Shown piece after piece: positions 30,327-64,000 of a DNA stretch of 64,000 bases. A program made the translations under genes and the position numbers. Position 1 is the stretch's first letter, and the number at the start of each line of letters is the position of its first letter. Source of the DNA: Coriobacteriia bacterium (GTDB lineage: Bacteria; Actinomycetota; Coriobacteriia; WRKU01; WQUG01); NCBI GenBank assembly GCA_009785795.1, contig WQVN01000001.1:25487-89486 (forward strand). The letters are read 5' to 3'. The notes beneath the pieces are model-generated. The model saw nothing but the letters and a program-made list of their open reading frames with translations. It had not been told where the DNA came from and made no database searches.

Positions 30327-30357
30327 CCCATCTGGTCACTGCAAGCTACATGATATT

Positions 30358-30894: not shown

Positions 30895-30943
30895 GGTAAT
30901 TATTTCTCCGCCAATTCTAGTCAGGCTCTAACTAGATTTGATA

Positions 30944-37336: not shown

Positions 37337-38587
37337 TCATGCACGCTCTAACCCAAGTCTCTCATTCTTTGCCCTCCAGTAGCGCGTATAGCGATTTTTG
37401 CCAGAAAGCATCTGCCAGTCTTTATCATAGAATTCATCAATCAGCGATTGCTCATCTCTATTGGCACTGGCAGAAAGTGCAGCAAGATCATCTGGACTGG
37501 GATTGTCAGAACTCATAATTTGCTCTTCTTGAGCAAACCACTGTTGTTCTAAAGTTCTGATTCTTTTGCGAAGTGCAGCAACATCAATCTTTCCTGCTAT
37601 GACTGCTCGGTGCAGGTGCTCACGCCGCAACCAGTAATCGAGACTCTGCATCGCGTCGTCAAAAAGCGGCGGAGTAGAAGAGCTCCAAAACACAGGCTTA
37701 AACGCAGATATGCAAGGCGTCGAAGATCCCGTAAGCCACAAGGTAATTGGTTTGCGCTCACGCAATGTTAGCACTATAGATCCCGTAGTGTGATCACCAA
37801 TCATGCCACCTGCATGCATGCACACACTTCCTGTGCTCTTGCGGGAGAATTCTTTTCCGTCAAGGCCTTCTTCATGTGTTCGAAGAATCTCTATCAGGCC
37901 TCTTGCGCCAGCCGTGGGCTGCAGACCACATTCTGCTTGATGTCTACGCTGCTTCGATTCAGCAAAATATGAGCGAATTGGCTCGGTATAGGAGCGAGCA
38001 AAATCTTCGCCAGGCGCAATACCTGCCTGTGCAATATGATTAGTTCCAATGCAAAGACGATTCGAAATAGCATACGCATCTTTTACTTCTGCTAGCGCAT
38101 AATTTTTGGCAGAGGTCTCCAGCACAAAACTGCGTGTAGGATCACTAATCAGAAAGCTGTTATCGTAGTGGAATTCTTTATCAAAGCCGCAATTGCCTCC
38201 TTGACCATACTGCAGCAGCAGATCAACTATCAGTTTGGCCGCTTCGAGAGCTGTACCCGTACGTTCAAGCGCCAGGCGGAGCAAATCCATTCCAATTAGA
38301 GATGGTTTTCCTCGCTTTGCTTTTGTGAACACCGCCTCATTACCAATTGCAACACGGGCATCATTCACGCCCATTTCAGCACCCCACATCCATGAAGGTT
38401 TGCAGATGATTATTTCTCGAGTCTGCTCTACCTGAGGAATATCGATGTAGGTGCATTTAAGCGTAGTGCCAGGCGCATGGCGCATGGCAGAAACGCGCAA
38501 GGTTAGCAATGGCTCATTGGGACTCCGGTCACTGTTCTTAGCAAAATAGCCCAGCCCGTCAGAGCTGAAGCCTGACATAATGCACAT
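37337..38587 (-). CDS. C69-family (dipeptidase A / secernin-like) cysteine peptidase.
   Basis: It has a Cys nucleophile directly after the Met (MCIMSGFSSDG...AKNSDRSPNEP). The start is trimmed to the second Met. Confidence 0.6.
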   Translation of the reverse strand: MCIMSGFSSDGLGYFAKNSDRSPNEPLLTLRVSAMRHAPGTTLKCTYIDIPQVEQTREIIICKPSWMWGAEMGVNDARVAIGNEAVFTKAKRGKPSLIGMDLLRLALERTGTALEAAKLIVDLLLQYGQGGNCGFDKEFHYDNSFLISDPTRSFVLETSAKNYALAEVKDAYAISNRLCIGTNHIAQAGIAPGEDFARSYTEPIRSYFAESKQRRHQAECGLQPTAGARGLIEILRTHEEGLDGKEFSRKSTGSVCMHAGGMIGDHTTGSIVLTLRERKPITLWLTGSSTPCISAFKPVFWSSSTPPLFDDAMQSLDYWLRREHLHRAVIAGKIDVAALRKRIRTLEQQWFAQEEQIMSSDNPSPDDLAALSASANRDEQSLIDEFYDKDWQMLSGKNRYTRYWRAKNERLGLERA

Positions 38588-38726
38588 AGTGTCACACATT
38601 GCTGCCTCCTTGTTTGGCTAAGGGTCATCTGCCGCACTGCAAAGTGGGCTAATCTTAGTTCAAGACATTACCAGCAGAACGTGCTCAATGCAGCTATACA
38701 TGTTTGCTCTACAACCTACTGCACGT

Positions 38727-43050: not shown

Positions 43051-43261
43051 GACTCTATTGTAAGTTAATCCATCATCTGGCTTGTATTTTCCCTACCATC
43101 TGAACCTGAAAAGGTTTATCATTAAATATACGTGTAAAACAGCATCGTCCCTCGTCGCAGGCAACTACGCTTGAGTGTCCGCGCACGGGCAGCCGTCTAC
43201 ACGGACAGCTGTGCAAGAGCTGCACAGAGATGAACGATTCAACAGGAATGGATGTAACACG

Positions 43262-44266
43262 ATGAAAAAGAGCTTTAGGACAGTCAGGACACTTTTCATG
43301 GTACTCATCTTGCTGTGCGCGTCCCTTGTTGGGGGCAGCTTAATTGCAGGAGCGTTACCGGAGTATGAGGACAACGGGTCAGATGCGGATGTCCCTACAG
43401 ACGTACAGCCAGTTGATGTTCCAGAAACTGAGGAAGGCATCATGGCAATCAGCGGAGAGCTTGATGCTGAAATGGCTGCCACACTAGGTGGACCCATTAC
43501 TCCCTTTGAATCCATGATTTATAAAGTCATGCAATCGCATGGTTCATGGATTGTTATTGTAGGTGGAGACTTGGCAGAAAATATGCCACTGCCAGCAACT
43601 ATCGAAATCGCAGTGCCCGCAGATGCTCCTGTCTTTTGGTTTGGTGAGGTTGGTAATACAGGCGATCCTGCTCAAGACCCACGCTTTCCACAACCATGGC
43701 AGTTCCGCACAGAGGGTGACTTTGACATCTACACTGCAACTATGACGCAGTATCATCGAGTCCAAATTGAATATAGGCTGAACGATAGCCCATTTAGCCA
43801 AGGACCAGACGGACCCTCAATCCACGTAGAGTACACTCCCTTGCAGGATCTTGAAGAGCTGCGCTTAGCTGTTGCACTACCAGCAGGTGGCGCGGTACTT
43901 GCACGCGATGTTCAGTTCCTCGGTATGGGACCTGGTAATGAACCTGCCTTTGCTCGCATTATCGAAAACGCTCAAGCAGGCGAGTTGTATTCCACAGAAA
44001 TTACCTACACCATTACTGCAGGTGGAAACGCCATAACAAATCTCGACGGCTGGGTAGTTATCGTTCTCGCTGCCCTATTGTTTGGCGGTGCTGCCCTAAC
44101 CTTCTGGCTGTTTATCAAGACAAGAAATAAATCAGCCCACTACGATGATGACTGGAGTGAAGACGAGAGCGTCCAAGAAGATGACGACAGCGACAACGAT
44201 ACAAGCGAAGATGTTGATGATGATCGCTCTGAAGCTTCTAAAAGTGGTGGAGCTTGGGGCAACTAA
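43262..44266 (+). CDS. Paralog A of an uncharacterised type-I membrane protein family, built as a signal peptide, an extracytoplasmic domain of about 230 aa, one TM helix and an acidic cytoplasmic tail.
   Basis: AGGAA precedes the ATG at 43262 (MKKSFRTVRTLFMVLILL). The motifs IAVPADAPVFWFGEV, RTEGDFDIYTA, IEYRL and HVEYTPL are shared with the next two genes. The TM helix is followed by a DDDSDNDTSEDVDDD tail. Confidence 0.7.
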   Translation: MKKSFRTVRTLFMVLILLCASLVGGSLIAGALPEYEDNGSDADVPTDVQPVDVPETEEGIMAISGELDAEMAATLGGPITPFESMIYKVMQSHGSWIVIVGGDLAENMPLPATIEIAVPADAPVFWFGEVGNTGDPAQDPRFPQPWQFRTEGDFDIYTATMTQYHRVQIEYRLNDSPFSQGPDGPSIHVEYTPLQDLEELRLAVALPAGGAVLARDVQFLGMGPGNEPAFARIIENAQAGELYSTEITYTITAGGNAITNLDGWVVIVLAALLFGGAALTFWLFIKTRNKSAHYDDDWSEDESVQEDDDSDNDTSEDVDDDRSEASKSGGAWGN

Positions 44267-45297
44267 TGGCAACATCAACACATAAGGTCACACACAGACT
44301 CAGGGCAAAAATCCTGAGTCTGACCACATATGTTCTTGCGCTATCACTACTTTTAATGGTTCTTGCTCCCACGCTGGGACTACTTGCAGACAGCACCACT
44401 ATGCCGATTCCCGCATTGCTGACTGCTGCGGTTGCTGGAGCAGATGAAACTGATCCAAGCAATACAGCAGACGAACCTGAAGAAGAACGGCTTGTCGCAC
44501 CTGTAGTCGAACCTGCCACAGATCAGATAATGCCTCTGGACTTCGTGCTGTACAAGGTATATCGCACTCCAGATGGCTATGCTGGATTAGTCAGTGGCGG
44601 CATGGACATATCAGAAGAACAACTTCCCGCACGCTTTGAGGTTGCCGTTCCTGCAGGAGTTGAGCTTCTGTGGTTTGGTGAAATACATGGCGGCGATAGA
44701 GAGAACGATCCTGCCTTTCCTGAGCCATTTGAAATGCGCACAGAGGGTGACTTTGACATCTACACTGCTGTCACTACAGTGCCCGTCATGCAGATTGAAT
44801 TCCTACTGGGCTACACTGCCACTGAACTTATGCGTAATGGAAATCATTCAATACACCTAGAATACACCCCTCTGCATAATGCACGAACGTTGCGTTTGGC
44901 GACATATATCCCTGATGGCAGTACCGTACTGGACGCTCCGCTGCTTGAAAACTTAGGTCTATCCCCTCACCTGCATGAATATATTTATGCACGCACCTTC
45001 AGCAATGTTGCCGGTGGCAGAGCCTACGAAATCACTATTGAATACCAGCCCTCAGCGGCTGCGGCACGTCACGGTACCGCTGACCTTGAGATGGGCATCG
45101 TTGTCGTAGCGGTCACAGTGATAGGAACCCTGTTTTTGGCGGCAGGACTCATGTTGCTTGTCAGGCACAGGCGTAACCAAGCAGAGTCATACGATGACAC
45201 AGATTACGATACTTATTACGGCGAAAACAACGATGAAGGCACTGATGATGTTGATGACAGCACAGAAGACAGGGAAGAAAGTAGCGATGACGAGTAA
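44266..45297 (+). CDS. Paralog B of the same family.
   Basis: Its ATG at 44266 overlaps the TAA stop of paralog A in a TAATG junction. It has the same motifs (VAVPAGVELLWFGEI, RTEGDFDIYTA, HLEYTPL), a TM helix and an acidic tail. Confidence 0.7.
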   Translation: MATSTHKVTHRLRAKILSLTTYVLALSLLLMVLAPTLGLLADSTTMPIPALLTAAVAGADETDPSNTADEPEEERLVAPVVEPATDQIMPLDFVLYKVYRTPDGYAGLVSGGMDISEEQLPARFEVAVPAGVELLWFGEIHGGDRENDPAFPEPFEMRTEGDFDIYTAVTTVPVMQIEFLLGYTATELMRNGNHSIHLEYTPLHNARTLRLATYIPDGSTVLDAPLLENLGLSPHLHEYIYARTFSNVAGGRAYEITIEYQPSAAAARHGTADLEMGIVVVAVTVIGTLFLAAGLMLLVRHRRNQAESYDDTDYDTYYGENNDEGTDDVDDSTEDREESSDDE

Positions 45298-46113: not shown

Positions 46114-48105
46114 ATGTCCATAAACACGCCCGAAGACCGCGAACTCATACTGCGCGACAAAGCAGCGCGTGAAGGCTTCAATGTGCCACAAGATGTTATT
46201 GATTTTTTGGTCAACCGCTTTGACAGCGAGGTTGGACTAAAAAGCGCACTCATCAATATTGCAATGTTTGCGTCATATCGCTCAATCCCCATTAGTCTTG
46301 ATGTTGCAAAGCTCGTAATTGATGGTGAGAGAGTGCGTCCACTTTCTACGATGACCCCTGAATATGAAGCAGAGCGTGCCACTACATCTACAAGCGCGCC
46401 TGCTGAAAAGCGCGTACCTGCCACACCCATGCAGGCAGCAAGTGCAGCTCCAAAAACACCAGCAGCTTCAGCAGCATCACCGACCCCTAAGCTTGCTGCA
46501 ACACCCCCAGCTGTCAAATCAGAGCAGCAGGATGATCCTCCATCGCTCTTTGATTTGCCCATCCCTACGCCAGCACCTTCTGCACCACAGCCACAAGTTC
46601 CCGAACACGACCTTACAGCACCTTTCACGGTTCAACCTGCCCAGAAGGCTGCAACACCTGTCACCGAGCCTGCTGCATCTACAATACCTACACCAGAACA
46701 GGCACCTGTTGCTGCACCTATATCAGTAAGCCCTGAACCAACAACATCTGCACCTGCAAAACCAGCACCTGTAGCACGATTCTGCTCACAGACTGGTAAA
46801 CCTCTGAATCAGGAAACCACAGTACCGCCTACGCCAGTTGCGACGCCGGCTCCTGAACCAGTAGTGCCAATGCCGATGCCAACACCCGCTGTGCAGCAAG
46901 CTCAATACTTCCAGCCAATCAAAGAGGCTCCTCCCCAACAATCAGAAGCGCAAATGCGCCTTGTCTCGCAAACAGGAAGTGACGTGTTCTTTATTCCCTT
47001 GCGTACTCAGCGCAAGCGATCATTGTTTGAGCGCATCAATTTGGCACTTACTCGCGCCGGCATTGACGACGTGATTCAGGCAGACGACAAGGTCGCTGTT
47101 AAAATTCATTTTGGCGAAGAAGGCAACACTGGCTTTGTCAGTCCAGTCCATGCACGTAATGTAGTAAATCGTGTTAAAGAGTTGGGTGGAAAACCATTCC
47201 TCACTGACACAAACACGCTTTATGCAGGGCAGCGTCAAAACGCCATTGATCACATAAATTGTGCTATCGCAAATGGATTTGGCTATTCAACCGTAGGTGC
47301 GCCCATCATTATTGCAGACGGTCTGATTAGTCGCGATTCTGTTGTCGTGCCCGTCGCTGGTGGAAAACATTTCGAATCGGTGCGCGTTGCAAGTGCCACC
47401 ATAGATGCCGATGTCATGATTGTCATTAGTCACGTCAAGGGACACAGTCTAGCAGGCTTTGGCGGTGCGATCAAGAATATCGGTATGGGGTTGGGTTCGC
47501 GTAGCGCAAAGCAGCGCATGCATTCTGGCATCAAGCCAAGCGTTGTTCCCGATAATTGTACAGCCTGTGCTCGCTGCATTGACTGGTGTCAACCAAAGTG
47601 CATCACTATGGCACAGGGTCAGTCAGGAACACGCTACGCTCACATCAATCATGATGTATGCAATGGCTGTGGCGAATGTCTGACAGCTTGTGCCCATGGT
47701 GCGATTGCTATTAACTGGGACACCTCTCCTCAGGATTTCTTAGAGCGAACTGTTGAACATGCAGCAGGTGCGCTTGCGCACTTTAGTGCAAAAGAACAAA
47801 ACAAGGTCATCTACTTGAACTTTTTAACCAATATCACGCCAGACTGTGATTGCTGCACCTATTCCGATGCCCCCATCGTTGGCGATATTGGCATACTTGT
47901 TAGCTGCGACCCAGTTGCAATTGATCAAGCAGCCGTTGACTTGGTCGAACAAGCACAGGGCGCAAAAGACTCTGTTGGTGAAGACCTCAAGTGCGGTGAT
48001 GAAAAGTTTCAGGCAATCAATGACGTTGATGTTTCTTTGGCAATGCGCTATTCGCAACAACTAGGGCTCGGCTCACAAAACTACCGCCTGCGTACGATTA
48101 ACTGA
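46114..48105 (+). CDS. Fusion protein: DnaA-lid-like helical domain, a Pro/Ala/Thr-rich linker of about 220 aa, and a DUF362 domain with an inserted 2x[4Fe-4S] ferredoxin.
   Basis: An AGGAG RBS precedes the ATG. The N-terminus, ELILRDKAAREGFNVPQDVIDFLVNRFDSEVGLKSALINIAMFASY, resembles the DnaA/Hda AAA+ lid (compare the DnaA segment [33 protein letters not shown]). The C-terminus has CxxCxxCxxxC and CxxCxxCxxxC clusters embedded in a DUF362 core. Confidence 0.7.
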   Translation: MSINTPEDRELILRDKAAREGFNVPQDVIDFLVNRFDSEVGLKSALINIAMFASYRSIPISLDVAKLVIDGERVRPLSTMTPEYEAERATTSTSAPAEKRVPATPMQAASAAPKTPAASAASPTPKLAATPPAVKSEQQDDPPSLFDLPIPTPAPSAPQPQVPEHDLTAPFTVQPAQKAATPVTEPAASTIPTPEQAPVAAPISVSPEPTTSAPAKPAPVARFCSQTGKPLNQETTVPPTPVATPAPEPVVPMPMPTPAVQQAQYFQPIKEAPPQQSEAQMRLVSQTGSDVFFIPLRTQRKRSLFERINLALTRAGIDDVIQADDKVAVKIHFGEEGNTGFVSPVHARNVVNRVKELGGKPFLTDTNTLYAGQRQNAIDHINCAIANGFGYSTVGAPIIIADGLISRDSVVVPVAGGKHFESVRVASATIDADVMIVISHVKGHSLAGFGGAIKNIGMGLGSRSAKQRMHSGIKPSVVPDNCTACARCIDWCQPKCITMAQGQSGTRYAHINHDVCNGCGECLTACAHGAIAINWDTSPQDFLERTVEHAAGALAHFSAKEQNKVIYLNFLTNITPDCDCCTYSDAPIVGDIGILVSCDPVAIDQAAVDLVEQAQGAKDSVGEDLKCGDEKFQAINDVDVSLAMRYSQQLGLGSQNYRLRTIN

Positions 48106-48123
48106 CCAGCCGAATACATACCT

Positions 48124-48885
48124 ATGACTGGTGATACATCACCTGGAACGCTCTACGTCGTTGCCACCCCCATTGGCAACTTGGGAGATATGACCTTGCG
48201 TGCAATTGAAGTTTTGCAGCAAGTATCGGCAGTCTATTCAGAAGATACGCGTGTTTCCAGACGGCTGTTTAATCACTTTGGAATCGATACGCCACTCAAA
48301 CGCTTCGATGACAGAACAAGCTCACGTAAAATTCCTGAGATTTGTACGCACCTAAAAACTGGCGCAGACATTGCACTGATAAGTGATGCAGGAACTCCTA
48401 CAATCTCTGATCCTGGAATGCCACTAGTCGCCGCAGCACGTGCAGACAATATCCCCGTTACGGTAGTTCCTGGTGCAAGCGCAGCTGTGGCAGCGCTTTC
48501 AATTAGTGGACTGCCTGCTCATGCCTACTACTTTGGCAGCTTTCTGCCCCGCAAAAAAGGCAAGTGCGAAACCTTGCTACAGTCGCTAGATATGCTAAAC
48601 GCCACTCTGATTTTTTTCGAATCTCCTCACCGCATTGTGACAGCAACACAGCACCTCGCACAGCTCTACCCCAATAGACAGGCAGTCATCGCACGCGAAC
48701 TGACAAAACATTATGAAGAAGTTTTGCGCGGCAATCTAGAAGAGCTGTCTGCAGAGCTCACTCACAGGCAAAACAATAATCTAGTCAGCACACTGCGGGG
48801 CGAGTTCGTTATACTATTAGCTCCGCTTAAATTTGACGGCACACATACTGATGGCATAAAAGACAGACAAAGGCAGGATTCATGA
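48124..48885 (+). CDS. rsmI: 16S rRNA (cytidine1402-2'-O)-methyltransferase RsmI.
   Basis: It has the tetrapyrrole-methylase fold, with LYVVATPIGNLGDMTLRA and ISDAGTPTISDPG. Confidence 0.85.
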   Translation: MTGDTSPGTLYVVATPIGNLGDMTLRAIEVLQQVSAVYSEDTRVSRRLFNHFGIDTPLKRFDDRTSSRKIPEICTHLKTGADIALISDAGTPTISDPGMPLVAAARADNIPVTVVPGASAAVAALSISGLPAHAYYFGSFLPRKKGKCETLLQSLDMLNATLIFFESPHRIVTATQHLAQLYPNRQAVIARELTKHYEEVLRGNLEELSAELTHRQNNNLVSTLRGEFVILLAPLKFDGTHTDGIKDRQRQDS

Positions 48886-50150: not shown

Positions 50151-50561
50151 TCATAGCAGGTTCTCGCACCCGTTATTGCTTTTGCGTGGCAGATGGGACA
50201 TGTCTTCATTAGGTTCATGTTCTTCTCCTAATTTCGCGGTTATATTTTCAATATGGTCACCTACAAGCAACCATGCGTTTTTGCTTGCAGGTCGTTCAAG
50301 CACGCTATGCGTTTTGGGCGGACTTTGGCAGACACGATTCGGAACTACATTCCTGTACAACGCAATTACTTGTCCCTGCCTGTTTAAGAATGCGAGGTCA
50401 AGCGCATACTGCATGCCAAAGGTGTGTACTCCCTTACACGGAATTAGATGCAGCACATCGAAATTAAGCTGATGTTGTCTGGTGCCTAAAAGACCTTTCA
50501 TGCGTCCGTAATAACTGGTGACCGTCTTGACCTTCATGCATGTTTTATGTGTTCTGCTCAT
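50151..50561 (-). CDS. DUF192-family protein (COG1430) at the distal end of the Tad operon.
   Basis: The ORF is 136 aa and reads like DUF192 (CKGVHTFGMQYALDLAFL). Confidence 0.6.
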   Translation of the reverse strand: MSRTHKTCMKVKTVTSYYGRMKGLLGTRQHQLNFDVLHLIPCKGVHTFGMQYALDLAFLNRQGQVIALYRNVVPNRVCQSPPKTHSVLERPASKNAWLLVGDHIENITAKLGEEHEPNEDMSHLPRKSNNGCENLL

Positions 50562-50999
50562 TTATAGTCCTGTGCTCCAAAAAATGTTCAAACTTTTTTC
50601 GCGCGTCAGAAACTCTGGTGAGCTTGCAGCTGCACTTGCAAAAATGCGTGTCGCAAACAACTCGTATTCAAATGTAAAGTGCAGTGTTCTCTTTTGCAGA
50701 AATAGTTCACCGCTGCTCTCAACATGTACCTGAATCCTATAAGGACCTTTTGATCCTTTGTCATATCCCATAGCCTCATCAAGCACCTGACCTGCTATCG
50801 CTACCGGATCTTCACTCGATGTCACCAATGCGCGCGCAACTTCATTTACGGAACGATCAAAGCGTGCTGCCTCTGCAAAAAACATGCCCACATTCACTAT
50901 GATTGCTAACACTAGCAACACACAGGGGATCAGCATGACCAATTCTGCCGTCATCTGTCCGCACTCGCAGCGAAGCCGCTTCAAACAAGGCAACATCAT
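50562..50999 (-). CDS. TadE/TadF-like pseudopilin.
   Basis: Its N-terminus is GQMTAELVMLIPCVLLVLAII, the TadE-like signature. Confidence 0.65.
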   Translation of the reverse strand: MMLPCLKRLRCECGQMTAELVMLIPCVLLVLAIIVNVGMFFAEAARFDRSVNEVARALVTSSEDPVAIAGQVLDEAMGYDKGSKGPYRIQVHVESSGELFLQKRTLHFTFEYELFATRIFASAAASSPEFLTREKSLNIFWSTGL

Positions 51000-53140
51000 C
51001 GAAATCCCAGCGCGACGAAGAGTTCTTGCTCTCTGCCTCGAACAGACTCGAAAGCAGTGCTTGCCATATTTTGCACTGTCTGACTAAAGGGTAGTGGAAT
51101 ACTGACTCCCAATACGCGAACTTGCATCAGCTCTTCAATGCGACTACCAACATCTGCATCAAGTTCATTAATCATGCCACTTATAGCTTCGCGCATACCT
51201 GCAATTGAAGCACCTCCACTTTGCTCAAGCCCCTCTTTTGCTGTAGCAACCGATTGGACAAAGCTGCCTTCAAATCCTGACGCATTGATATCTCCAACAT
51301 CTGAAGTACTGACTAGTGTTGGCATAGGTCTACGCAAATCTGGAGCACTTATCTGAGCTGTATCAAAGAATGATCGTAGGCTGCTCGTTGCAATGCTGTC
51401 CAAGCCAAAAGGCAATCCCAGCATTAAGCGCTCAATTTGTGCACTGCCATCTGCATGCATCTGTAGGCAACTGCCCCAGATGCTTAAGGCAAATCCAATA
51501 ACCGATCCTGCAAAGCTATCATCCTCACCACCTAAAAGTTCATGTGTCACGCCTGCAAAGCCCTCTACTCCTGCACTATCTGCCATATCAGCAGACTGTG
51601 ACAACAAGCTGGGAATCGTTGACTCGCCACCTGATGGCATGAGGCGTGCACCTGCCATTGCCATCTGCCTACCTAAAACAACATCCTCGGAAGCGGTCAA
51701 AACTGGCAGTGTAAATGCTGGCAGTTCACGCTGCCCTGATGACACAACAACACAAATGTAGCCCCGCGCACCAGCAGGTGTGTAACTTAAGCGATTGCCT
51801 ATCAAAAATGATTTCGACTCTTCAAGCAATAAATCAAATGCATCCTGCGTTCTTTCACGAACCTGATCTTGTTCAAGCTCAATTGATTCTGTCGCCTGAT
51901 ACCACCAACGCAGTGCTGCTGCCTCAAAGTTCCAAGATTGGACGTACTCTGCCAATTGTTGTTCCCATACTTGCAAGGCGCGCCAATGCGGAGGTTCGCA
52001 CAATACGCAGGGTGGATGGTCAACATCACCAGCGACATAACTTAAGGTGCGCGTGCGCAATTCTGCTGTTGAGCCTGCAAGCCCAAAGCAATTCGGATTG
52101 CTGTGATATGCTCTACGATCACCATCAGCACGTTCTAGCACGTAGATGCGTTGTCCGCGTTCGCTACCAAGCAAGTCACTCATGCTAATATCTGCAACAT
52201 CGGCAGCCTCTGTCGCGGCCGCTCTATCTAAAATCACATGGACTTGTTCATCCACGGACTGTCCTATGCGACGATAGTCCTGCAGATAGCGCTCTTGCAG
52301 GCGGTCACGGTTAATCTGTGTGTTATCAATCGGCACAGGACCATCAATCACTGGTATTGACTGCGCCTGTAATTCTCCCCACCCGCGAGCAAAATCGTCA
52401 ATAGCAGACAAAGGATTCCAATGAGCCCTACTAGTTCCTGGCAGCAAAAAGACATTTAGTCGGAAACATTCATCAACGGCCGCCTCGACATCGCCCTCTA
52501 ATCGCTTGATTTCATGGGCAGACTCGGTATTTTCTTTGCCTGCCCTTGTCACTTCTTGTAGTAACTGGTCTGCATCACCAGAAGAATTTGTCAATTCAAC
52601 TTTTCCGCGCAAAGGAAAGGGTACTGCTATCGCTGTATAGGCTGTACCATTAAAGTCCCCCAACAGTCGCGAATTTTCCGTTGCCGAATAATAGCTGGTC
52701 GCCATTGCCAAATAAGGAGTTGCCTCGCTAACCACAGATGCCAACTGATAGGCATGTTGTGCAAATTCACGCCGCTTTTTGCAGTATCGATAATTGAAGT
52801 CAACTATCCGTTCAAGAAAAGGCGTCGCGGCCACACCTCCAACAGGTGCCGAAAGCACCGTTAGCAAGCCTGCCACAATCGTTATTGCATGAAGCACTAA
52901 TCCAAATAAATTTGCCGTAAGTAACATAGCATCGAGAGCTTGAATTAGCATGACAGACTGCGCTGTTACATCAGCTGCTGCCAAAGCCCCAATGTCTGCC
53001 ACAACTTGAATATCTGAAGAGGTCGAGTTTGTCCAGTACCACTGCACGCTGGATGCTAGTAACACCACACTGAGCATAATACCTAGCACCATCGTTAATG
53101 ATGTTGAACCTTCTTCATTTTTGAACCATGAAAGCCTCAT
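50996..53140 (-). CDS. Large (714 aa) TadG-like membrane-anchored protein.
   Basis: It has an N-terminal Tad_N-like segment (EEGSTSLTMVLGIMLSVVLLA) and a long soluble region with no other domain I recognise. Confidence 0.6.
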   Translation of the reverse strand: MRLSWFKNEEGSTSLTMVLGIMLSVVLLASSVQWYWTNSTSSDIQVVADIGALAAADVTAQSVMLIQALDAMLLTANLFGLVLHAITIVAGLLTVLSAPVGGVAATPFLERIVDFNYRYCKKRREFAQHAYQLASVVSEATPYLAMATSYYSATENSRLLGDFNGTAYTAIAVPFPLRGKVELTNSSGDADQLLQEVTRAGKENTESAHEIKRLEGDVEAAVDECFRLNVFLLPGTSRAHWNPLSAIDDFARGWGELQAQSIPVIDGPVPIDNTQINRDRLQERYLQDYRRIGQSVDEQVHVILDRAAATEAADVADISMSDLLGSERGQRIYVLERADGDRRAYHSNPNCFGLAGSTAELRTRTLSYVAGDVDHPPCVLCEPPHWRALQVWEQQLAEYVQSWNFEAAALRWWYQATESIELEQDQVRERTQDAFDLLLEESKSFLIGNRLSYTPAGARGYICVVVSSGQRELPAFTLPVLTASEDVVLGRQMAMAGARLMPSGGESTIPSLLSQSADMADSAGVEGFAGVTHELLGGEDDSFAGSVIGFALSIWGSCLQMHADGSAQIERLMLGLPFGLDSIATSSLRSFFDTAQISAPDLRRPMPTLVSTSDVGDINASGFEGSFVQSVATAKEGLEQSGGASIAGMREAISGMINELDADVGSRIEELMQVRVLGVSIPLPFSQTVQNMASTAFESVRGREQELFVALGFR

Positions 53141-53166
53141 GATTACTGCACCATCCTTATCTGTCC

Positions 53167-53757
53167 TTACCTATTAGGAACAAACCCGAACTGTTGGGGA
53201 GCATTCTGTGGTGTCCCTTCAACCCCTTGTTGTGTGCCACGCACGACAGCATGACCAGTGACTTCAACATTCTGATTTATGCTTGCTCCTACTAAAAATC
53301 CCATCAATGGCAATGGTTCTTGCTTTAGCGAAACACTTACTTCTATGACTTCTGAGCGCGAATTGCCACTAACCTCAACCTGCAATGTTCCGGGAATCCA
53401 AAAAGCATCGCCCCTCGGCAGACCCGCTAATCTATCTGCTGCATAACTGTGCAATAATCCGTCCTGTCCATGACCTGTTTCTTCGTCTTTTGTCGCCACA
53501 ATTCGACCAATTCCTACCGCGACCTGTCCCAATGTCATCTGTGTGTATAAATAGATAGCAGGCTGTATCATCATTAGGATAAGCACGCACATGATTAGGA
53601 TGACCCAGGGCAACTCTGCAAGAGCTTGTCCTTTTTCATTTTGTCGCAGCTTTGCAAGAATCTGCCCTTTAGCGTCTTGCCATAACTTTATACAGGTCTG
53701 TCCGTTTTCGCGCCGTACTTTAAACGAAACTAGTGCATGATTAGATCCTTTAGCCAT
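53167..53757 (-). CDS. tadE: TadE-like pseudopilin.
   Basis: It has GQALAELPWVILIMCVLILMMIQ. Its N-terminal leader contains a short duplicated KGQxLAxL unit. Confidence 0.65.
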   Translation of the reverse strand: MAKGSNHALVSFKVRRENGQTCIKLWQDAKGQILAKLRQNEKGQALAELPWVILIMCVLILMMIQPAIYLYTQMTLGQVAVGIGRIVATKDEETGHGQDGLLHSYAADRLAGLPRGDAFWIPGTLQVEVSGNSRSEVIEVSVSLKQEPLPLMGFLVGASINQNVEVTGHAVVRGTQQGVEGTPQNAPQQFGFVPNR

Positions 53758-53951
53758 TGACCACTAACCCCCGTTCCTGCAGGTGGCAATGAATAAGGTG
53801 CATGTAGGTACGTTCGCGAACTGTGCGTATCTGCATTGGACTCTGCTGCACTAAAATAGCTGAGCAAGGCTGCCCCAGCCAGCACCACAGCAAGGCTCAC
53901 AAGCAGCGCAATAACATACTCTGCATTCGCCTGCCCACTTTCATTGCGCAT
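53730..53951 (-). CDS. flp: Flp-family pilin or pseudopilin (second copy).
   Basis: It has the G/QANAEYVIALLVSLAVVLAG Flp prepilin motif. Its start overlaps the stop of the upstream flp in a TGATG junction. Confidence 0.6.
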   Translation of the reverse strand: MRNESGQANAEYVIALLVSLAVVLAGAALLSYFSAAESNADTHSSRTYLHAPYSLPPAGTGVSGQWLKDLIMH

Positions 53952-54145
53952 CACGCAATGCCGCCCAATTGACTGGTTATGCTTTCCCACACATTTACCA
54001 GTTGCTCATGAAACGCAATCGCTAGAATGATGCAAGCAATCACAATGACCGCTAGAATAATGACGTACTCTGAAACCCCTTGTCCGCAGTCCTTGCGCAC
54101 ATAACTCAAGCCTCTTGCCATGCAACTCAAAACCATATCTCTCAT
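53951..54145 (-). CDS. flp: Flp pilin.
   Basis: The ORF is 64 aa. It has the Flp prepilin motif G/QGVSEYVIILAVIVIA followed by a hydrophobic helix. Confidence 0.75.
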   Translation of the reverse strand: MRDMVLSCMARGLSYVRKDCGQGVSEYVIILAVIVIACIILAIAFHEQLVNVWESITSQLGGIA

Positions 54146-54273
54146 AAAGCTTTCCTCTCATCTTATTGTTATGACTACCTAACCAGCTTTGATGCTTCTG
54201 ATGAATGAACATTGTTTCTGAAAGCAACGTGCAGCACCTATACGTAAGGCTTCAAGAACAACACTCGGCTTCA

Positions 54274-55089
54274 TCAGAAATTGCCCATTCCGGTTAGAAC
54301 TTGTGCCATGATTGGTCCCATCAGCAAGATTAATACTGCTGGTACGATGCATAAGCCTAGCGGAGCCAGAATTTTCACGGGAGTCTTTGCAATGCGCTCT
54401 TCGAGGCGTGCAATACGATATTCGCGCACATCCCGAGAAAAGGTTCCCAGCACAGTTCCCAGTGGTGAGCCCAGAGAAAATGCCTGACGTAAAGCATTCA
54501 CAAATCGCAGTACCGCCTCTTCCTGTAGTGAGTCTGCAAGCTGTTCAAAGGCCTTCATGCGCGAAAGCATTCCTGCCTGATACACCTGCTCTGCGCGACG
54601 AAACTCGTCTGCAAGTGGCGTATCATAGCGCGATAAATACCAGTCAAAAGCCTGGTCAACAGACAATCCTGCACCCAAAGCAAGCAGCAAAATATCAATC
54701 ATCTCGGGCAAGTCGTTTACACAACTATCGCGCAAAGCCTGTGCCTGTCGCTGCTCTATCTTCGATACAATAGGTTTCGCAAATACGCGGACTACAGGAA
54801 GCTCAACCGCTACATTTATTGCCTGATTCAAGCTATTTATTGCATCAGAAAAACCTGCAACACTCACGCCTCTGTCCTGCTTGACTTTGTGTACGGTAAG
54901 CACAGCACCATTACTGTCAATGCTTCCTATTCCCTTAAGGTCATGCAAGCTCTTGCGCTGTTTGCGCGTATGACTTTCGTCAAATTGAAACAGACAGTAT
55001 GCCATCATGCTGACAAGCACAGCTACAGCACTTACGCATATAAGACCCAAAATAAGACCTTGGATCTCTAGATTCGTCAGACTAAACAT
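54274..55089 (-). CDS. tadC: Tad pilus inner-membrane platform protein TadC (T2SSF domain).
   Basis: It has the T2SSF fold with TM helices. Confidence 0.75.
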   Translation of the reverse strand: MFSLTNLEIQGLILGLICVSAVAVLVSMMAYCLFQFDESHTRKQRKSLHDLKGIGSIDSNGAVLTVHKVKQDRGVSVAGFSDAINSLNQAINVAVELPVVRVFAKPIVSKIEQRQAQALRDSCVNDLPEMIDILLLALGAGLSVDQAFDWYLSRYDTPLADEFRRAEQVYQAGMLSRMKAFEQLADSLQEEAVLRFVNALRQAFSLGSPLGTVLGTFSRDVREYRIARLEERIAKTPVKILAPLGLCIVPAVLILLMGPIMAQVLTGMGNF

Positions 55090-56173
55090 GGATATTTACC
55101 ACCGAGCGAACCCATAAGAATCCAACAACTACCAATCCTATCGCCAGAACAAACAGCATTTGTCCTCCCGCAGTGCTTAGCCACAAACCCAAATATCCTG
55201 GCATCATCAGTGAGAGTAGCCCAATCAAGATAAAGGGAATGCTGCCCACTAAACGCACAGAGCTTCTTCCCTGTGCCGTTTGAACCTTTAGCTTCTTGTT
55301 CAGCATCAAATCCTGCCGAATGGAGGTCGCCAGCTCTTCAAGTAACGCAGGGGCACTTCCTCCAATTTGGGCAGTAATATCTATGACCGCTGCCACTGAT
55401 TTAAGTTCGCGGAGTTCTGTTGCACCTGCCATATCATGTAAACTTTTTGAATAATTGCGCCCTAAGCTTGCATCTGCATCAAGGCGTCGCAGCACATCAA
55501 TTGTCGGACTATCTTCACTTTGCCCATCAAGAACAAAACGTAATGCCTGTGAAAACGATCTGCCAGCACGCAAGGATTGTGCTAGTTCATCCAACATGTC
55601 AGGAATTGCTGCACGTAGTGCCTGGCGTCGCCCATCTGCACAAGCCTGCACATAAACCAAGCTACCTATCACCATAAGCACAGCCATAGCAATGGATAAC
55701 AAAGGTGAGCCTAGGGCAACACCCAGTATCATGAACAACAGCAGAACAGCAAGCCACCATTGCAAAACAGCCTCGATATGCTCTACAAAGCCTGCTTGTT
55801 CCAACAATCGCAAGAATCGTCTGCCTGCAACACTATGCTCGCACAATGTTCGGCATGGTCCACTTGTCTTACTCCCCCACAGGGGACGCTTCCACAGGGA
55901 TAAAGTTACACCTTCTCTGCTGCCTGTTTCACTATTAGCAAGCATTGCCTCTGAAGCTATTTTGCCTTGCAGGCGCAGGCGCAATTGCTGCTCATCGCGC
56001 TGTGCTTGTGCTACATCAAAAAGCATTGACGCGAGGGTACTAACCGCGTACCAAGTGCAACCCACCGCACATGCAGCAACGGTAATCCAAAAGAACTGTG
56101 CCAGTACTCCATTCAGCACTCCAAGCTCAAGATTAAGCATGTGCAATCTCCTCTCGCCACAGTGCAAGTTCAT
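55082..56173 (-). CDS. tadB: Tad pilus inner-membrane platform protein TadB (T2SSF domain).
   Basis: It has the T2SSF fold and overlaps tadC and tadA. Confidence 0.75.
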   Translation of the reverse strand: MNLHCGERRLHMLNLELGVLNGVLAQFFWITVAACAVGCTWYAVSTLASMLFDVAQAQRDEQQLRLRLQGKIASEAMLANSETGSREGVTLSLWKRPLWGSKTSGPCRTLCEHSVAGRRFLRLLEQAGFVEHIEAVLQWWLAVLLLFMILGVALGSPLLSIAMAVLMVIGSLVYVQACADGRRQALRAAIPDMLDELAQSLRAGRSFSQALRFVLDGQSEDSPTIDVLRRLDADASLGRNYSKSLHDMAGATELRELKSVAAVIDITAQIGGSAPALLEELATSIRQDLMLNKKLKVQTAQGRSSVRLVGSIPFILIGLLSLMMPGYLGLWLSTAGGQMLFVLAIGLVVVGFLWVRSVVNIHV

Positions 56174-57491
56174 TAGAGTCTGTTACATTTTGAACAAGCA
56201 GCGAATCAACAAAAGTTGGCACTGCAAGGAATCTTGACTGTCCCAATACTGCACCATCATCACCCATTCCTGTCTGTTCAAAACAGTAGATTGGGCGCAA
56301 GTAATATCCTTGCTTACGCCTTGTAGCAATATCGTGCACGTTGTCAGCATGAACAGAATCTGCCACTTTGCTGTCATCACCATTCGACTGGCCATCATCT
56401 GTGCACAGCTCTACCACTTCAATTATTCGGCGTTTGCCATCAGAACAGCGTTGTACATGCACTATAAGATCAAGAGCAGCAGCAATTTGCGCCTCGATTT
56501 GTGTCTGCGATTGATTTGTTCCATAGCCAACCATAGTAATGAGCCTTGTAATAACCTCATGTGGAGTATTCGCATGAAGCGTCGTCAGTGAACCATCATG
56601 TCCCGTATTCATTGCTTGCAGCATTTCGAGTGCTTCAGCGCCACGTACCTCGCCCACAACAATGCGATCAGGACGCATACGCAAGCTATTAATTACCAAG
56701 TCGCGCATGGATATCTCACCCTGCCCTTCAAGATTTGGCGGACGTGCTTCTAAGCGCAGTACATGCGGATGTGCAGAAAATTTCAATTCCGCAGAATCCT
56801 CAATAGTGATAATGCGTTCATCTGCAGGAATTTCTAAAGACAGGGCATTAAGTAATGTTGTCTTGCCACTGCCCGTTCCCCCACTGACAGCAATATTCTG
56901 TCCACTTGCAACGGCCCAACTAAGCAGAGTCGCCAGCCGTGCATCAACACTATTCATCGTCGCTAGCTCATTTAGTGAAAAGGTAAAATCGCTAAACTTG
57001 CGAATTGTCAACAAAGGCCCACTTAGAGACACCGGTGGTATTATCGCGTTAACACGATGCCCTGCAGCAAGACGCCCATTGACCATAGGATTTTGTTCGT
57101 CAATGCGTCGTCCGATAGGCGATATTATTCGGTCAATTGCAGTACGCAACTGCTCTTCACTGCCATAACTATCGGGACTTAAGATTATCTTGCCCTCGCG
57201 CTCAAAGAATATCCTGTCCTCACCATTTACCATGATTTCTGTGACACTGGGATCTGCAAGGAGTGAATCAATGACGCCCAATCCCAGCACTTCACTTGCC
57301 GTAAGTGCGACTAATCTATCACGCTGTTCTCGTGACTTAAATCGTACAGATCCTGTCTGCGCAAGCCTGCGTAAAACTTCTTCAACTTCTTTTCGTGCCA
57401 TGTCGCTATCTGCTTTTAGCAGCGCAGCAATGCGCTCAGGACTGAAAATTTGATACAGTTCGGACTTAAGCTGTTCGATATTCTGGCGCAC
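56133..57491 (-). CDS. tadA: Tad secretion ATPase TadA/CpaF.
   Basis: It has a GGTGSGKTTLLNALS Walker A motif and belongs to the VirB11/CpaF family. Confidence 0.9.
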   Translation of the reverse strand: MRQNIEQLKSELYQIFSPERIAALLKADSDMARKEVEEVLRRLAQTGSVRFKSREQRDRLVALTASEVLGLGVIDSLLADPSVTEIMVNGEDRIFFEREGKIILSPDSYGSEEQLRTAIDRIISPIGRRIDEQNPMVNGRLAAGHRVNAIIPPVSLSGPLLTIRKFSDFTFSLNELATMNSVDARLATLLSWAVASGQNIAVSGGTGSGKTTLLNALSLEIPADERIITIEDSAELKFSAHPHVLRLEARPPNLEGQGEISMRDLVINSLRMRPDRIVVGEVRGAEALEMLQAMNTGHDGSLTTLHANTPHEVITRLITMVGYGTNQSQTQIEAQIAAALDLIVHVQRCSDGKRRIIEVVELCTDDGQSNGDDSKVADSVHADNVHDIATRRKQGYYLRPIYCFEQTGMGDDGAVLGQSRFLAVPTFVDSLLVQNVTDSNELALWREEIAHA

Positions 57492-58917
57492 GACGCAACA
57501 ACCCCCTTTGCCCTTTCTCTTTTCTGGTCAGCCTTCTATTGCCAGTTTCGCCAGATGCAATTGTTCTTTTCGCTGATAAAAGTCGTGTTCCGCCCTCACG
57601 ACGCATCGCATGACGAACTGCAGCCGTATCATGCAAGACTAAATCACTGCGCACTGCAAGTTCATCCAAGATGCCCATAATCTCTGCTGTCAAAGTGCTG
57701 TTCTGAAAGGCCTTATCTATCTGGCCACTATCAAGACTTACCGCAAGTTCACGTCCCGAATCGTGTATGCACATCACTTTATCGACCAGTAAAACTTCTG
57801 CAACCTCTTGCGCGCGAAGTCCCGATTGTTGCATACGGTTCATCACAAACAGCAGTCGTGAAACTGGTATGCCTAGCCTGCGGCACAAGTCCTTCAATTT
57901 GGCAGTTGCTCGCACTCCTACCACAGATTGATCAAAAACACAGATAGCAATATCACTGTGTTCGAGCAATTCCCCATGAAATAGCGTCCAGTAGGCACCT
58001 GTATTCACAACAATCAATTCATAATCATGACGCAGACGCTCTAATGCTGCAGGTAAGACCTGCGCTAGAGCCTCAGCTTTTTCAGGAATTGCACGAGGAG
58101 CATATAACGACAGATTTGATGCGAGCTGCCTGCCAAATCTACGATGAGCATTCTGCTCTGCCCCATTGCTTACAGTTAGCGCTTCGAAAAGTTCAGAAAG
58201 ATCACAGCTCTCGTCTGCAAAAGTTTCATGTATACGCTGTTTTCCTGTAGAGCCAAATAAAAATCCCAAATCACCAAATTGCAAATCAAGGTCAAGTACA
58301 GCCGTATTAATATTCATCTGAGCAGCCAGGTAAGCAAGTGCGCAGCTAATCGTTGATCTGCCTGCACCACCGCGCGCACCGATCAAAGGAACAACTACTG
58401 CCCTATGTACATCCTTGTCACTAGAAGGCGATATCTGTACCGCCCCATTTCCAGCGCTAACAGCACTGGCCGATTCAGTCAAGCGCTCAAGCAGAAGTTC
58501 AAGTTCTGTCACAGATGCTTGACGTGAAATGGTCGCCCTAGCACCCGCAAGCATTGCCCGTTGAACATAGTCAACGTCATTGACCTCAGTCACCACAATA
58601 ATTCCCAGATTAGGGTGTGACAGGCGAATGGCATCACACAAGTTCAAAGGTGAAATATCAGAAATTAGCTTGTCAATAATTACTATTCGCTGCGTTGTTG
58701 GATCATCAAGTGCAAGCGCGCGAAAACATTCAGCGCCACTGCGAAAAGTATGCACTAAGCGCACTGCGCCATTGGTCATAAGTCCCGCAACCTCAAGAGG
58801 AAAATGTTTGTCCGAACTTACAACTGTCAGCACGTCCAACATAATCTTACTCATCCAATTCCGTATCATCTGCTGTGAATGCAGCTGCTGGCAAAACCAA
58901 ATGGATTGCACCTGCAC
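57466..58917 (-). CDS. tadZ: TadZ/CpaE: a receiver-like domain fused to a MinD/ParA-type ATPase.
   Basis: It has a deviant Walker A motif, GARGGAGRST, and an N-terminal pseudo-receiver domain. Confidence 0.8.
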   Translation of the reverse strand: MQVQSIWFCQQLHSQQMIRNWMSKIMLDVLTVVSSDKHFPLEVAGLMTNGAVRLVHTFRSGAECFRALALDDPTTQRIVIIDKLISDISPLNLCDAIRLSHPNLGIIVVTEVNDVDYVQRAMLAGARATISRQASVTELELLLERLTESASAVSAGNGAVQISPSSDKDVHRAVVVPLIGARGGAGRSTISCALAYLAAQMNINTAVLDLDLQFGDLGFLFGSTGKQRIHETFADESCDLSELFEALTVSNGAEQNAHRRFGRQLASNLSLYAPRAIPEKAEALAQVLPAALERLRHDYELIVVNTGAYWTLFHGELLEHSDIAICVFDQSVVGVRATAKLKDLCRRLGIPVSRLLFVMNRMQQSGLRAQEVAEVLLVDKVMCIHDSGRELAVSLDSGQIDKAFQNSTLTAEIMGILDELAVRSDLVLHDTAAVRHAMRREGGTRLLSAKRTIASGETGNRRLTRKEKGQRGLLRRAPEYRTA

Positions 58918-62140: not shown

Positions 62141-62185
62141 TGCAATTCCTCTCACAGTCGTCAATGTGTGCACGTACAAATAAGA

Positions 62186-62212
62186 AAGAGCGGGAGTCAG
62201 TCCCGCTCTTTA
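62186..62212 (-). terminator. Terminator of the cytochrome gene.
   Basis: AAAGAGCGGGA-gtcag-TCCCGCTCTTT. On the minus strand a TTCTTATTT run follows. Confidence 0.65.
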
Positions 62213-62247: not shown

Positions 62248-63840
62248 TTAATCTTGATATCCTGGACTCAATAAGCTGTTTAAGAAGCCCAATATTCCCG
62301 ATTCACTGTTGTCAACTTGGCCGTGTGTGATGTAGTGTTGCGAGATGATAAATCCATTTGGCACTTCGTCACTATTATCTGCGTGACAACGAGCACAGAA
62401 TAGCTCTCCCAAATCATCACGAGTCGGCTCTGGATCGCCACCCAAGCCATCTGAATCTACCAGACCCAATAAAGCTATGTCATGGTCTGGTGATCTATGT
62501 GGCCAGTCGCTATCAGGTGCCACACGTGCATAGTCAGCAGTACCAAAGTGACAGCTTGAACATGCAAGATTAATTGCCTGCTGCGCCCGCATTTCAGCAT
62601 CAGTACCTGAATCAAGTGCGAAATAGCCTAGTGCGCGGAATGCTGCAAGTTCTGCAACCTGAGGGTTTTCAGCATCGGCAATAGGCACAATGCCATTAGA
62701 ATCCCATTCTGCTGTATGCGATCCACTCAGGTCACCACGATGGCAAGTATAGCACTGAGCTGGTCCCGAATAAGCACCATTCCAGATAACTGGATGTGCT
62801 CCCTCAATAGGCTCATCTTCTAGATCAGTCGCAAAATCGCCCACATGAACATCAGTGGCATCAGTCAAGATAAATTCGTTCAACTCTCTCGGATCACCAT
62901 TCGGCACAAGAGGTTCTGGTTCTGCTGCGAGTAGATTGTGACAACTCGCACACCACACACCAAGAGTATATTGATTAATCTGATAGCTCTCGATTGCTGG
63001 TTCATCTGGCAGATCGTCAATACTTACTGGAACATTTCCTGTGCCACCTGGATCCTTGCGAAGCAGCTTATAGCCTATTTGATCTGTTGTTTCATTATTC
63101 TCAAATTGACCAGCATCAACGAAGTCTTCTCCAGTAATCGGATCTGTTACGCCACCTGTCCAGAAATCGGCAGGCATCCACGAAGCAAAGTTTCCACCAT
63201 GCACAACATGACATGTTGCACAGGTCATATCAATAGTTCCCACGTCAGAAGTGGAAGTAGGAATTTGTCTGTTTAATCCAAGGGAATGTCCAGAATCAAG
63301 GTCGGTAATCTCACTAGTGCCACCAGTAACGCCACCGTGATACACAAGATTTGAGCTCATGCCTGCAGCACCAACAGGAGATCCTGTTAGGTGACAGTAT
63401 TCGCAGCCCGTTGAACCTCGACGCGTCAACCAGTTATTTGTTCTGGTCGCACTTGCAAGTCCCGTGGATGGCTCGGTCACCTGCGCACTATGAGCCGAGT
63501 GACACACGCTACACTTTGCTGATGTTGTTGTGTAGCCACCATGAGGGCCACGACCCTGTAGTTCAAATTCCCCCAGTGTAGGTCCTCCAAGCAACACATA
63601 TTCGTTGCCATCACTCGGAAAGAGCAGTTCGCCACCCGGTCCGACTGCTGCATTAGAGCCAAAATCTGCCGGCTCACTGAACATGCGCGGTGCAGGAACC
63701 AAGCTGGCACCACTTGCGCTCAATCCAGATATCGATAATTCGTTGGCGTCTGCAGCAAATGCAGGTGTAGCAACCAACACAGTTGCACACGCAGTAAGTA
63801 CGAGCGCAGTTCCAAATCGTCCAATTCGCTTAATCTTCAT
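62248..63840 (-). CDS. Secreted heptahaem c-type cytochrome.
   Basis: It has a signal peptide (ALVLTACATVLVATPAFA/AD) and seven CxxCH motifs: CSVCH, CEYCH, CATCH, CASCH, CYTCH, CSSCH and CARCH. The start is trimmed to MKIKRIG after an AAAGGA RBS. Confidence 0.8.
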   Translation of the reverse strand: MKIKRIGRFGTALVLTACATVLVATPAFAADANELSISGLSASGASLVPAPRMFSEPADFGSNAAVGPGGELLFPSDGNEYVLLGGPTLGEFELQGRGPHGGYTTTSAKCSVCHSAHSAQVTEPSTGLASATRTNNWLTRRGSTGCEYCHLTGSPVGAAGMSSNLVYHGGVTGGTSEITDLDSGHSLGLNRQIPTSTSDVGTIDMTCATCHVVHGGNFASWMPADFWTGGVTDPITGEDFVDAGQFENNETTDQIGYKLLRKDPGGTGNVPVSIDDLPDEPAIESYQINQYTLGVWCASCHNLLAAEPEPLVPNGDPRELNEFILTDATDVHVGDFATDLEDEPIEGAHPVIWNGAYSGPAQCYTCHRGDLSGSHTAEWDSNGIVPIADAENPQVAELAAFRALGYFALDSGTDAEMRAQQAINLACSSCHFGTADYARVAPDSDWPHRSPDHDIALLGLVDSDGLGGDPEPTRDDLGELFCARCHADNSDEVPNGFIISQHYITHGQVDNSESGILGFLNSLLSPGYQD

Positions 63841-64000
63841 AGTCCTTTGCCTGCTTCTTAAGCCATGCTCCATCAATAATCCATCGCGTAGTCATATAAA
63901 AATCATACAATCCTACCCGTACAATAATACAATACCGCGGCTAAATATGATAGTTTTACTCTAAAAAAGTGCTGGACTGTCGTGAATTTCGAGGCAATCC

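Follow-up and report, generated by a model that had tools for sequence, protein, structure and literature searches.

A gene near the right-hand end of the 64,000-nucleotide stretch of Coriobacteriia DNA analysed here (the window) encodes a real, exported and well-conserved heptahaem electron-transfer cytochrome. Our reading, which we hold at a probability of about 0.55, is that the protein is a non-catalytic cytochrome for extracellular electron transfer (EET), located in the cell envelope and carrying seven covalently bound haems, each with two histidine ligands (bis-His). Coordinates of the gene, its control elements and the related loci are collected in Table 1.

The reading frame has CxxCH haem-attachment motifs at residues 110, 146, 207, 297, 363, 427 and 482 of its product. 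A longer form starting from a TTG codon at 63876 is possible, and the 12 residues it would add were found in no homologue in the alignment. The mature protein has 14 cysteines, every one of them within a CxxCH motif, the 15th (C18) being in the signal peptide, and 20,000 shufflings of the protein gave at most two CxxCH motifs against the seven present. The N-terminus, MKIKRIGRFGTALVLTACATVLVATPAFA followed by AD, was read by eye as a Sec/signal peptidase I signal, with a basic n-region, a hydrophobic core and cleavage between AFA and A. A lipoprotein reading of LTAC, with C18 as the modified residue, was dropped because C18 varies among homologues whereas the PAFAA cleavage region is kept. With a pI of 4.3, the mature protein is acidic; it has ~72 residues per haem, and SPGY is conserved near its C-terminus, followed in many homologues by tails rich in Pro, Thr, Ser and Asn. 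The motif count, reading frame and N-terminus bear out the initial annotation, made from the letters of the window, of a 530-residue product with a Sec signal and seven CxxCH motifs; with the conservation described below, they also uphold its identification as a secreted heptahaem c-type cytochrome.

Haem ligands were examined in alignments of 32 and then 55 sequences, the latter reaching down to ~30% identity. All seven CxxCH motifs were invariant or at least 98% conserved in both. Conservation of these motifs in homologues had been set beforehand as one of two tests of the identification, and the identification survives it across the 55 sequences. Exactly seven further histidines are conserved in the larger alignment (H100, H117, H185, H214, H332, H349 and H448), and this alignment revealed neither a CxxCK motif nor a conserved Met or Lys that might mark an open catalytic site. 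From seven proximal and seven distal histidines, seven bis-His low-spin haems are predicted; this pattern, together with the missing open-site signature, leads us to infer that the protein is an electron carrier rather than a catalyst. An alternative reading makes it a catalyst, either a peroxidase or a multihaem reductase of the kind that acts on nitrite, hydroxylamine, sulfite or tetrathionate. Profile searches gave weak matches to octahaem nitrite reductases (E = 0.02–0.04) and to a di-haem peroxidase model, and haem density is low. All such matches, however, were far below the family cut-offs, and neither the CxxCK nor a variant motif of the NrfA, ONR, HAO or OTR type is present, while there are seven extra histidines for seven haems; a catalytic role is most improbable.

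The 21 haem-binding residues and the seven distal histidines are strictly kept across lineages whose proteins are 30–55% identical. So strict a conservation of these 21 residues suggests that the haem motifs are used. The same conservation, with an intact frame, signal peptide and terminator, speaks against the view that the gene is a non-functional relic in an organism unable to make c-type cytochromes. That view draws on the lack of maturation genes in the window or its flank, and we find it barely credible.

The neighbouring genes on the upstream side lie past the window edge and were read from contig L001, which overlaps the window at 99.6% identity (blastn), with window base 64000 corresponding to L001 base 9841. 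A gene for an NHL beta-propeller protein with two transmembrane (TM) helices ends at L001 9831, so that its stop lies 10 nucleotides beyond window base 64000, and it is preceded by a gene for a TM-anchored TPR protein. Both are on the same strand as the cytochrome gene and directly upstream of it in all close loci. Upstream of the TPR gene in L001 are a Zn_peptidase_2 membrane protein and then a HAD-like hydrolase, 5-FTHF cyclo-ligase and purine genes; downstream of the cytochrome come genes for an aminotransferase V and then a 2-hydroxyacid dehydrogenase. Every close locus keeps this succession, from the Zn-peptidase through TPR, NHL and cytochrome to the two downstream genes, and a more distant termite clade retains TPR–NHL–cytochrome, with one sub-clade having an S8 peptidase instead.

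The initial annotation had expected a partner reductase beyond the 64-kb edge. This expectation failed: inspection of the upstream neighbours through L001 disclosed no molybdopterin or flavin reductase and no NrfD-like gene, and in L001 together with ~25 syntenic loci these genes and those for cytochrome c maturation were all missing, the loci showing NHL, TPR and Zn-peptidase genes and then housekeeping genes. The conserved partners are two membrane proteins of scaffold type, not a respiratory enzyme. An association with either respiratory reductases or EET had been proposed; the EET option fits the evidence, and the reductase option finds no adjacent reductase. The cytochrome might still hand electrons to a soluble-substrate reductase whose genes lie in another part of the genome. 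Coriobacteriia are generally rich in respiratory reductases, and the cluster contains no electron-input protein, so that partners must be encoded elsewhere in any case. Against this, ~30 family loci show no linkage of the cytochrome to a reductase, to NrfD or to an Fe-S subunit, and the NHL and TPR proteins, with the NapC/NirT-type proteins of relatives, are the make-up of EET clusters and not of reductase operons. We consider an unlinked reductase partner unlikely.

The TPR–NHL–cytochrome arrangement is a recurrent module, found from Thermincola to Coriobacteriia. When the L001 NHL protein was used as a tblastn query, a same-strand homologue was found at 33 of 77 loci, <2.5 kb upstream of a cytochrome with the motif HGGY..CxxCHxxH. 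Among these 33 is Thermincola ferriacetica, known for electron transfer to electrodes. The first-haem signature, PHGGY..T..KCxxCHxxH, occupies residues 99–117 of the window protein and is common to Thermincola and environmental Coriobacteriia. In an environmental metagenome-assembled genome (MAG) named 'Slackia sp.', the genes run ResB, CcsA, a Rex-like gene (recognised by eye), two NapC-like multihaems, TPR, NHL and cytochrome, and its NHL protein has two TM helices and the same cytoplasmic tail as that of L001. NapC/NirT-like multihaems, in many environmental loci as a pair, border the module in environmental Coriobacteriia/Actinomycetota and in Thermincola, with ResB/CcsA genes alongside in some; such pairs do not border it in the clade of the window. 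Published accounts of EET cytochrome clusters also mention NHL and TPR genes, with function unassigned, for Dethiobacter, Desulfovibrio ferrophilus, Geoalkalibacter and the Uet clusters of Tenderia type (PMC10376724, PMC5815863, PMC10734462, PMC12016550).

Within the termite clade, a contig from an Embiratermes gut (Ga0123357_10027296, locus L105) was the sole locus seen to link the family to putative quinol dehydrogenases. Its family member (P0041, 474 residues, seven haems, SPGY end) comes directly after two TM-anchored NapC/NrfH-like multihaems with ~12 and 6 CxxCH motifs.

The NHL protein has a cytoplasmic N-terminus, a TM helix, the NHL beta-propeller, a second TM helix and a cytoplasmic tail of ~180 residues that matches no family; the same architecture occurs in the distant locus L058 (8192–9631), and the Thermincola homologue has the N-terminal anchor only, with no tail. 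Such a conserved tail could suit a flow of electrons in the opposite direction, with uptake from Fe(II) or reduced humics, or a sensor in which the cytoplasmic C-terminal domain of the NHL protein reports the redox state outside the cell, and the cytochrome gene has a conserved upstream element of its own. The tail, however, contains no kinase, GGDEF or DNA-binding domain, and the Thermincola homologue does without it; uptake or sensing is very unlikely.

The closest counterparts in gene order are the T. ferriacetica cluster (L078) and those of environmental Coriobacteriia such as locus L058, which share with the window locus the succession of TM-TPR, TM-NHL and secreted multihaem proteins and the count of seven CxxCH motifs. 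Their first-haem motif, GPHGGYTTTS.KC..CH..H, is nearly identical to that of the window protein, pairwise similarity being limited to this motif; unlike the window cluster, they include NapC/NirT-type multihaems, to which L058 adds ResB/CcsA. Anaerosoma tenue and Parvivirga hydrogeniphila (OPB41) belong to the same class as the window, and according to their published description their multihaems, cytochrome c biogenesis genes and Rex are clustered, as in L058 (PMC9686372). The window family differs from theirs in lying on termite-gut contigs and in having no adjacent quinol dehydrogenase or biogenesis genes. Cultured OPB41 Coriobacteriia have 17–18 multihaems each, Parvivirga, an Fe(III) reducer, having 17, and one of these isolates is an obligate Fe(III) reducer (PMC9686372). 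OcwA of Thermincola potens (6i5b) and OmhA of Carboxydothermus ferrireducens (6qvm), both surface terminal reductases of Gram-positive bacteria that reduce metals, are likewise secreted multihaems of monoderms with a similar number of residues per haem; they have nine and eleven haems, respectively, compared with seven here, and match the window protein neither over their whole length nor in fold. OcwA reportedly includes haems with ligation other than bis-His, in contrast to the seven conserved distal histidines of the window cytochrome. OmcS and OmcE of Geobacter share the H-x-G-G...CxxCHxxH first-haem motif and are extracellular without an anchor, as the window protein would be; they have six and four haems, respectively, compared with seven, and no collinear sequence or fold similarity was detected. 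MtrC and OmcA, diderm lipoproteins of four domains with ten haems in two pentahaem domains, are alike in a presumed role as extracellular electron conduit and in one borderline Pfam match, given below.

Comparisons with solved structures were made with two whole-protein profiles (A1 and A2) and with a sub-profile of the N-terminal trihaem module. Against PDB sequences, the whole-protein profiles gave matches to CxxCH motifs only, for instance in reaction-centre cytochromes; OmcS and OmcE were not convincingly retrieved and OcwA and OmhA not at all, and these matches, confined to the haem motif, were rejected as evidence of homology. The trihaem sub-profile gave weak matches to OmhA (6qvm, 4e-6), OmcE (7tfs, 1e-5), OcwA (6i5b, 7e-4), a 16-chain 'putative multiheme cytochrome' (9yuq, 2e-3) and OmcS (6ef8, 3e-3). 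Photosynthetic reaction-centre cytochromes scored equally strongly in the same search, and the matches to solved cytochromes were treated as a resemblance in kind, not as homology. Curated Pfam and NCBIfam families do not describe the protein beyond the haem-motif level: the best Pfam match was the MtrC/MtrF domain PF22113 (residues 104–154, 30.2 bits against a cut-off of 30), and NCBIfam matches were far under their cut-offs (TIGR03507, 15.4 bits against 209.3). The NapC/NirT tetrahaem domain PF03264 gave no match in the window cytochrome, whose signal peptide is cleavable and not an uncleaved TM anchor. An AlphaFold2 (AF2) model had a pLDDT of 46 with the 32-sequence alignment and reached a pLDDT of 71 and a pTM of 0.72 with 55 sequences.

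The scheme that we propose for haem ligation, envelope location, interaction with the NHL and TPR proteins, electron donor and acceptor draws on this family context. The precursor would pass through Sec and lose its signal peptide, a step that the sequence supports. A System II machinery of the ResB/CcsA type, encoded elsewhere in the genome, would then attach haem on the outer side of the membrane, as suggested by the ResB and CcsA genes that accompany relatives. The TM-anchored TPR protein and the two-TM NHL propeller protein may hold or organize the anchorless cytochrome in the envelope, as synteny hints. Electrons would probably be delivered by a quinol dehydrogenase of the NapC/NirT/NrfH type, which is adjacent in relatives and unlinked in the window. 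From family context and habitat, the cytochrome would relay respiratory electrons to extracellular acceptors; in the gut of a soil-feeding termite, Fe(III) and humic substances would be the natural candidates.

Several observations weigh against an envelope EET cytochrome. No Ccs, Res or Ccm gene was found in the 64-kb window or in the 10 kb beyond it (~74 kb in total), nor does this DNA of the organism contain a quinol-oxidising or any other cytochrome. The protein shows no motif for anchoring to membrane or wall (LPxTG, lipobox and C-terminal helix are all missing), and retention by the TPR and NHL proteins is conjectural. Bis-His ligation is deduced from conservation. Finally, similarity to the characterised EET cytochromes stays at the level of motifs and is not collinear, the alignment with OmcE being made up of brief CxxCHxxH matches that recur, and a Foldseek search of the PDB with the pLDDT-71 model returned no match. 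With regard to the first two points, NapC/NirT/NrfH-type membrane multihaems were absent within ±10 kb of the cytochrome in the window's clade; a search with the pattern WGxxWxWD and tblastn with ResB/CcsA placed the ResB/CcsA genes at distant loci only. ResB/CcsA genes adjoin relatives in other Coriobacteriia; among the 120 close relatives of a CcsA query that a homologue search listed, none was assignable to the window's MAG.

The lack of an anchor is also what would be expected if the cytochrome polymerised into an extracellular haem filament like those of OmcS and OmcE, with the NHL and TPR proteins as assembly or retention machinery. The H-G-G-Y..C-x-x-C-H-x-x-H motif and the trihaem module do weakly match OmcE, 9yuq and OmcS. 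The published gene lists of the Geobacter sulfurreducens omcS neighbourhood include a spermidine synthase (GSU2502), a YVTN beta-propeller protein (GSU3586) and a TPR protein (GSU2508) (PMC10599522, PMC3495685), which resemble the MFS/spermidine synthase, beta-propeller and TPR proteins of the Thermincola cluster; judging from the lists in these two papers, the two loci may share an accessory set. The character of the OmcE matches, the unconvincing whole-protein profiles and the missing structural match tell against a filament, however, and with seven distal histidines for seven haems a ligand from a neighbouring subunit is not required, so that we regard polymerisation as unlikely. A bolder idea builds on the envelope EET cytochrome: the TPR and NHL proteins might be a dedicated, so far unrecognised monoderm apparatus that assembles or retains an extracellular haem conduit, possibly a polymerised wire, across the wall. 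The heptahaem family of termite guts would be its minimal three-gene form, letting Coriobacteriia respire Fe(III) and humic matter in the alkaline gut of soil feeders. We offer this as speculation with long odds.

A word-indexed search of 5.8 billion clusters retrieved 35 relatives, to which a repeat with a profile added none; at full length the family is very small, with ~30 of these clusters. Exhaustive HMMER searching of 1.84 billion representatives gave 488 proteins at E <= 1e-3 and 50 at E <= 1e-30, with ~27 full-length family members, and a scan of JGI metagenome contigs gave 31 full-length loci (prefixes such as Ga0123352-57, Ga0131853 and JGI20163/20166). The prefixes that could be traced to MAG titles come from gut compartments of Labiotermes, Embiratermes and Cubitermes (PMC7024585). 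As far as traceable, that is, for full-length loci whose contig prefix could be tied to MAG titles, the full-length family belongs to Coriobacteriia/Actinomycetota of the guts of soil- or humus-feeding higher termites. In more distant relatives, what is shared is chiefly the first three or four haem sites; these come from Coriobacteriia of sediment and groundwater and from other Actinomycetota.

For the window itself, contigs with 99.5–99.6% DNA identity were found in JGI sample 3300010162 and in an ENA assembly. The JGI contig prefix, Ga0131853, is shared with MAGs titled Lab288P1, a name that stands for compartment P1 of the gut of Labiotermes labralis, a soil-feeding termite (PMC7024585). 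A 99% identical protein is named 'hypothetical protein FWD93_03270 [Coriobacteriia bacterium]', and this naming from a Coriobacteriia MAG supports the Gram-positive genome assumed in the initial annotation.

Many homologues (P0004–P0019, P0022 and P0039; alignment A1) have an insertion of 60–130 residues just after the signal peptide, and P0022 and P0039 carry C-terminal extensions of 380–500 residues, the window protein being the shortest form. At codon 99 (63544–63546, minus strand), the window has Pro within an almost invariant RGPHGGY and the 99% identical database protein P0001 has Ser; two more residues differ between these two proteins.

Multihaem cytochromes are the best-understood bacterial route of electrons to solid or polymeric acceptors, and to our knowledge passage of electrons through the thick Gram-positive wall has been described for very few proteins. 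The termite-gut family is a further member of the extracytoplasmic multihaem cytochromes of Gram-positive bacteria and not a surprising one for its class; it presents the recurring module in a compact three-gene version (TPR, NHL propeller and heptahaem cytochrome). We know of no organism in which the NHL and TPR components have been assigned a role, and the family is for this reason a convenient handle on electron export. Iron and humus reduction are said to occur in the guts of soil-feeding termites, and the family would provide a molecular candidate for them. Even if its role in EET should prove wrong, some 30 'hypothetical proteins' gain a well-supported annotation.

Upstream of the cytochrome gene, the intergenic alignment of 5–6 species, whose proteins are 40–55% identical, contains an invariant noncoding block, TGTATTA(T)TGTANNNNTAGGA, ~70 nucleotides before the start codon. 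In the window its pattern is unique (0 expected by chance), and each related locus has a single copy at the corresponding place, making it a candidate promoter or operator of the cytochrome gene. A sigma-70 scan of this upstream region found no promoter above its threshold. The 160 nucleotides upstream have a GC content of 39%, compared with 47% window-wide; the AT-rich upstream region of the initial annotation is thus right in direction, and the AT richness is moderate only. The terminator that had been ascribed to the gene was confirmed by scan and folding, with an 11-bp stem followed by a T-rich tail (fold energy -25.5 kcal/mol, z-score -3.7).

Table 1. Features of the window and of related loci. 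Coordinates refer to the window unless a locus (L001, L078 or L105) is named.
Feature	Coordinates	Strand	Basis
Heptahaem c-type cytochrome precursor, 530 aa, start MKIKR	62248..63840	(-)	Open reading frame and translation
Signal-peptide coding part, residues 1-29, predicted cleavage after AFA	63754..63840	(-)	Read from sequence and homologue alignment
Intrinsic terminator between cytochrome stop and aminotransferase gene	62185..62211	(-)	Terminator scan and RNA fold
Intergenic region, NHL-repeat gene to cytochrome gene	63841..64000	(-)	blastn of L001 against window
Conserved upstream element TGTATTATTGTACGGGTAGGA, candidate promoter/operator	63911..63931	(-)	Intergenic alignment, 5-6 species
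TM-anchored TPR protein, 266 aa, one N-terminal TM helix	L001 7029-7829		
Two-TM NHL beta-propeller protein, 663 aa	L001 7840-9831		
Cytochrome gene in L001	L001 10001		
Thermincola ferriacetica MAG cluster: fused MFS/spermidine synthase, NapC/NirT multihaem, TM-TPR, TM-NHL, two secreted seven-haem paralogues	L078 4840-12373		
Embiratermes gut contig Ga0123357_10027296: NHL gene, two TM-anchored NapC/NrfH-like multihaems, family member	L105 11-4548		
Tad/Flp-type pilus locus: CpaE-like receiver/ParA, TadA ATPase, two T2SSF (TadB/C), TadE-like, DUF192	50151-58917	(-)	
663-aa DUF362 protein with 4Fe-4S dicluster domain, precedes RsmI gene	46114-48105	(+)	
TP_methylase gene, RsmI (16S rRNA methyltransferase)	48124-48885	(+)	
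Reading frames with no Pfam match: 363, 347 and 420 aa, and three of 178-200 aa in a row	43175-45297; 37337-38599; 29724-31480	(+); (-); (-)	

Two further loci in the window were considered and set aside. The Tad pilus locus at 50–59 kb was dropped as a functional partner because it does not lie beside the cytochrome in related genomes, and the TP_methylase gene was rejected as a lead to haem or tetrapyrrole synthesis, the gene being RsmI. The Tad locus also has reading frames of 714 and 196 residues that match neither Pfam nor NCBIfam. Elsewhere, the window encodes ordinary housekeeping functions, among them ribosomal protein S2, EF-Ts, GroEL, CysRS, RecG, genes of the serine pathway and four tRNAs.

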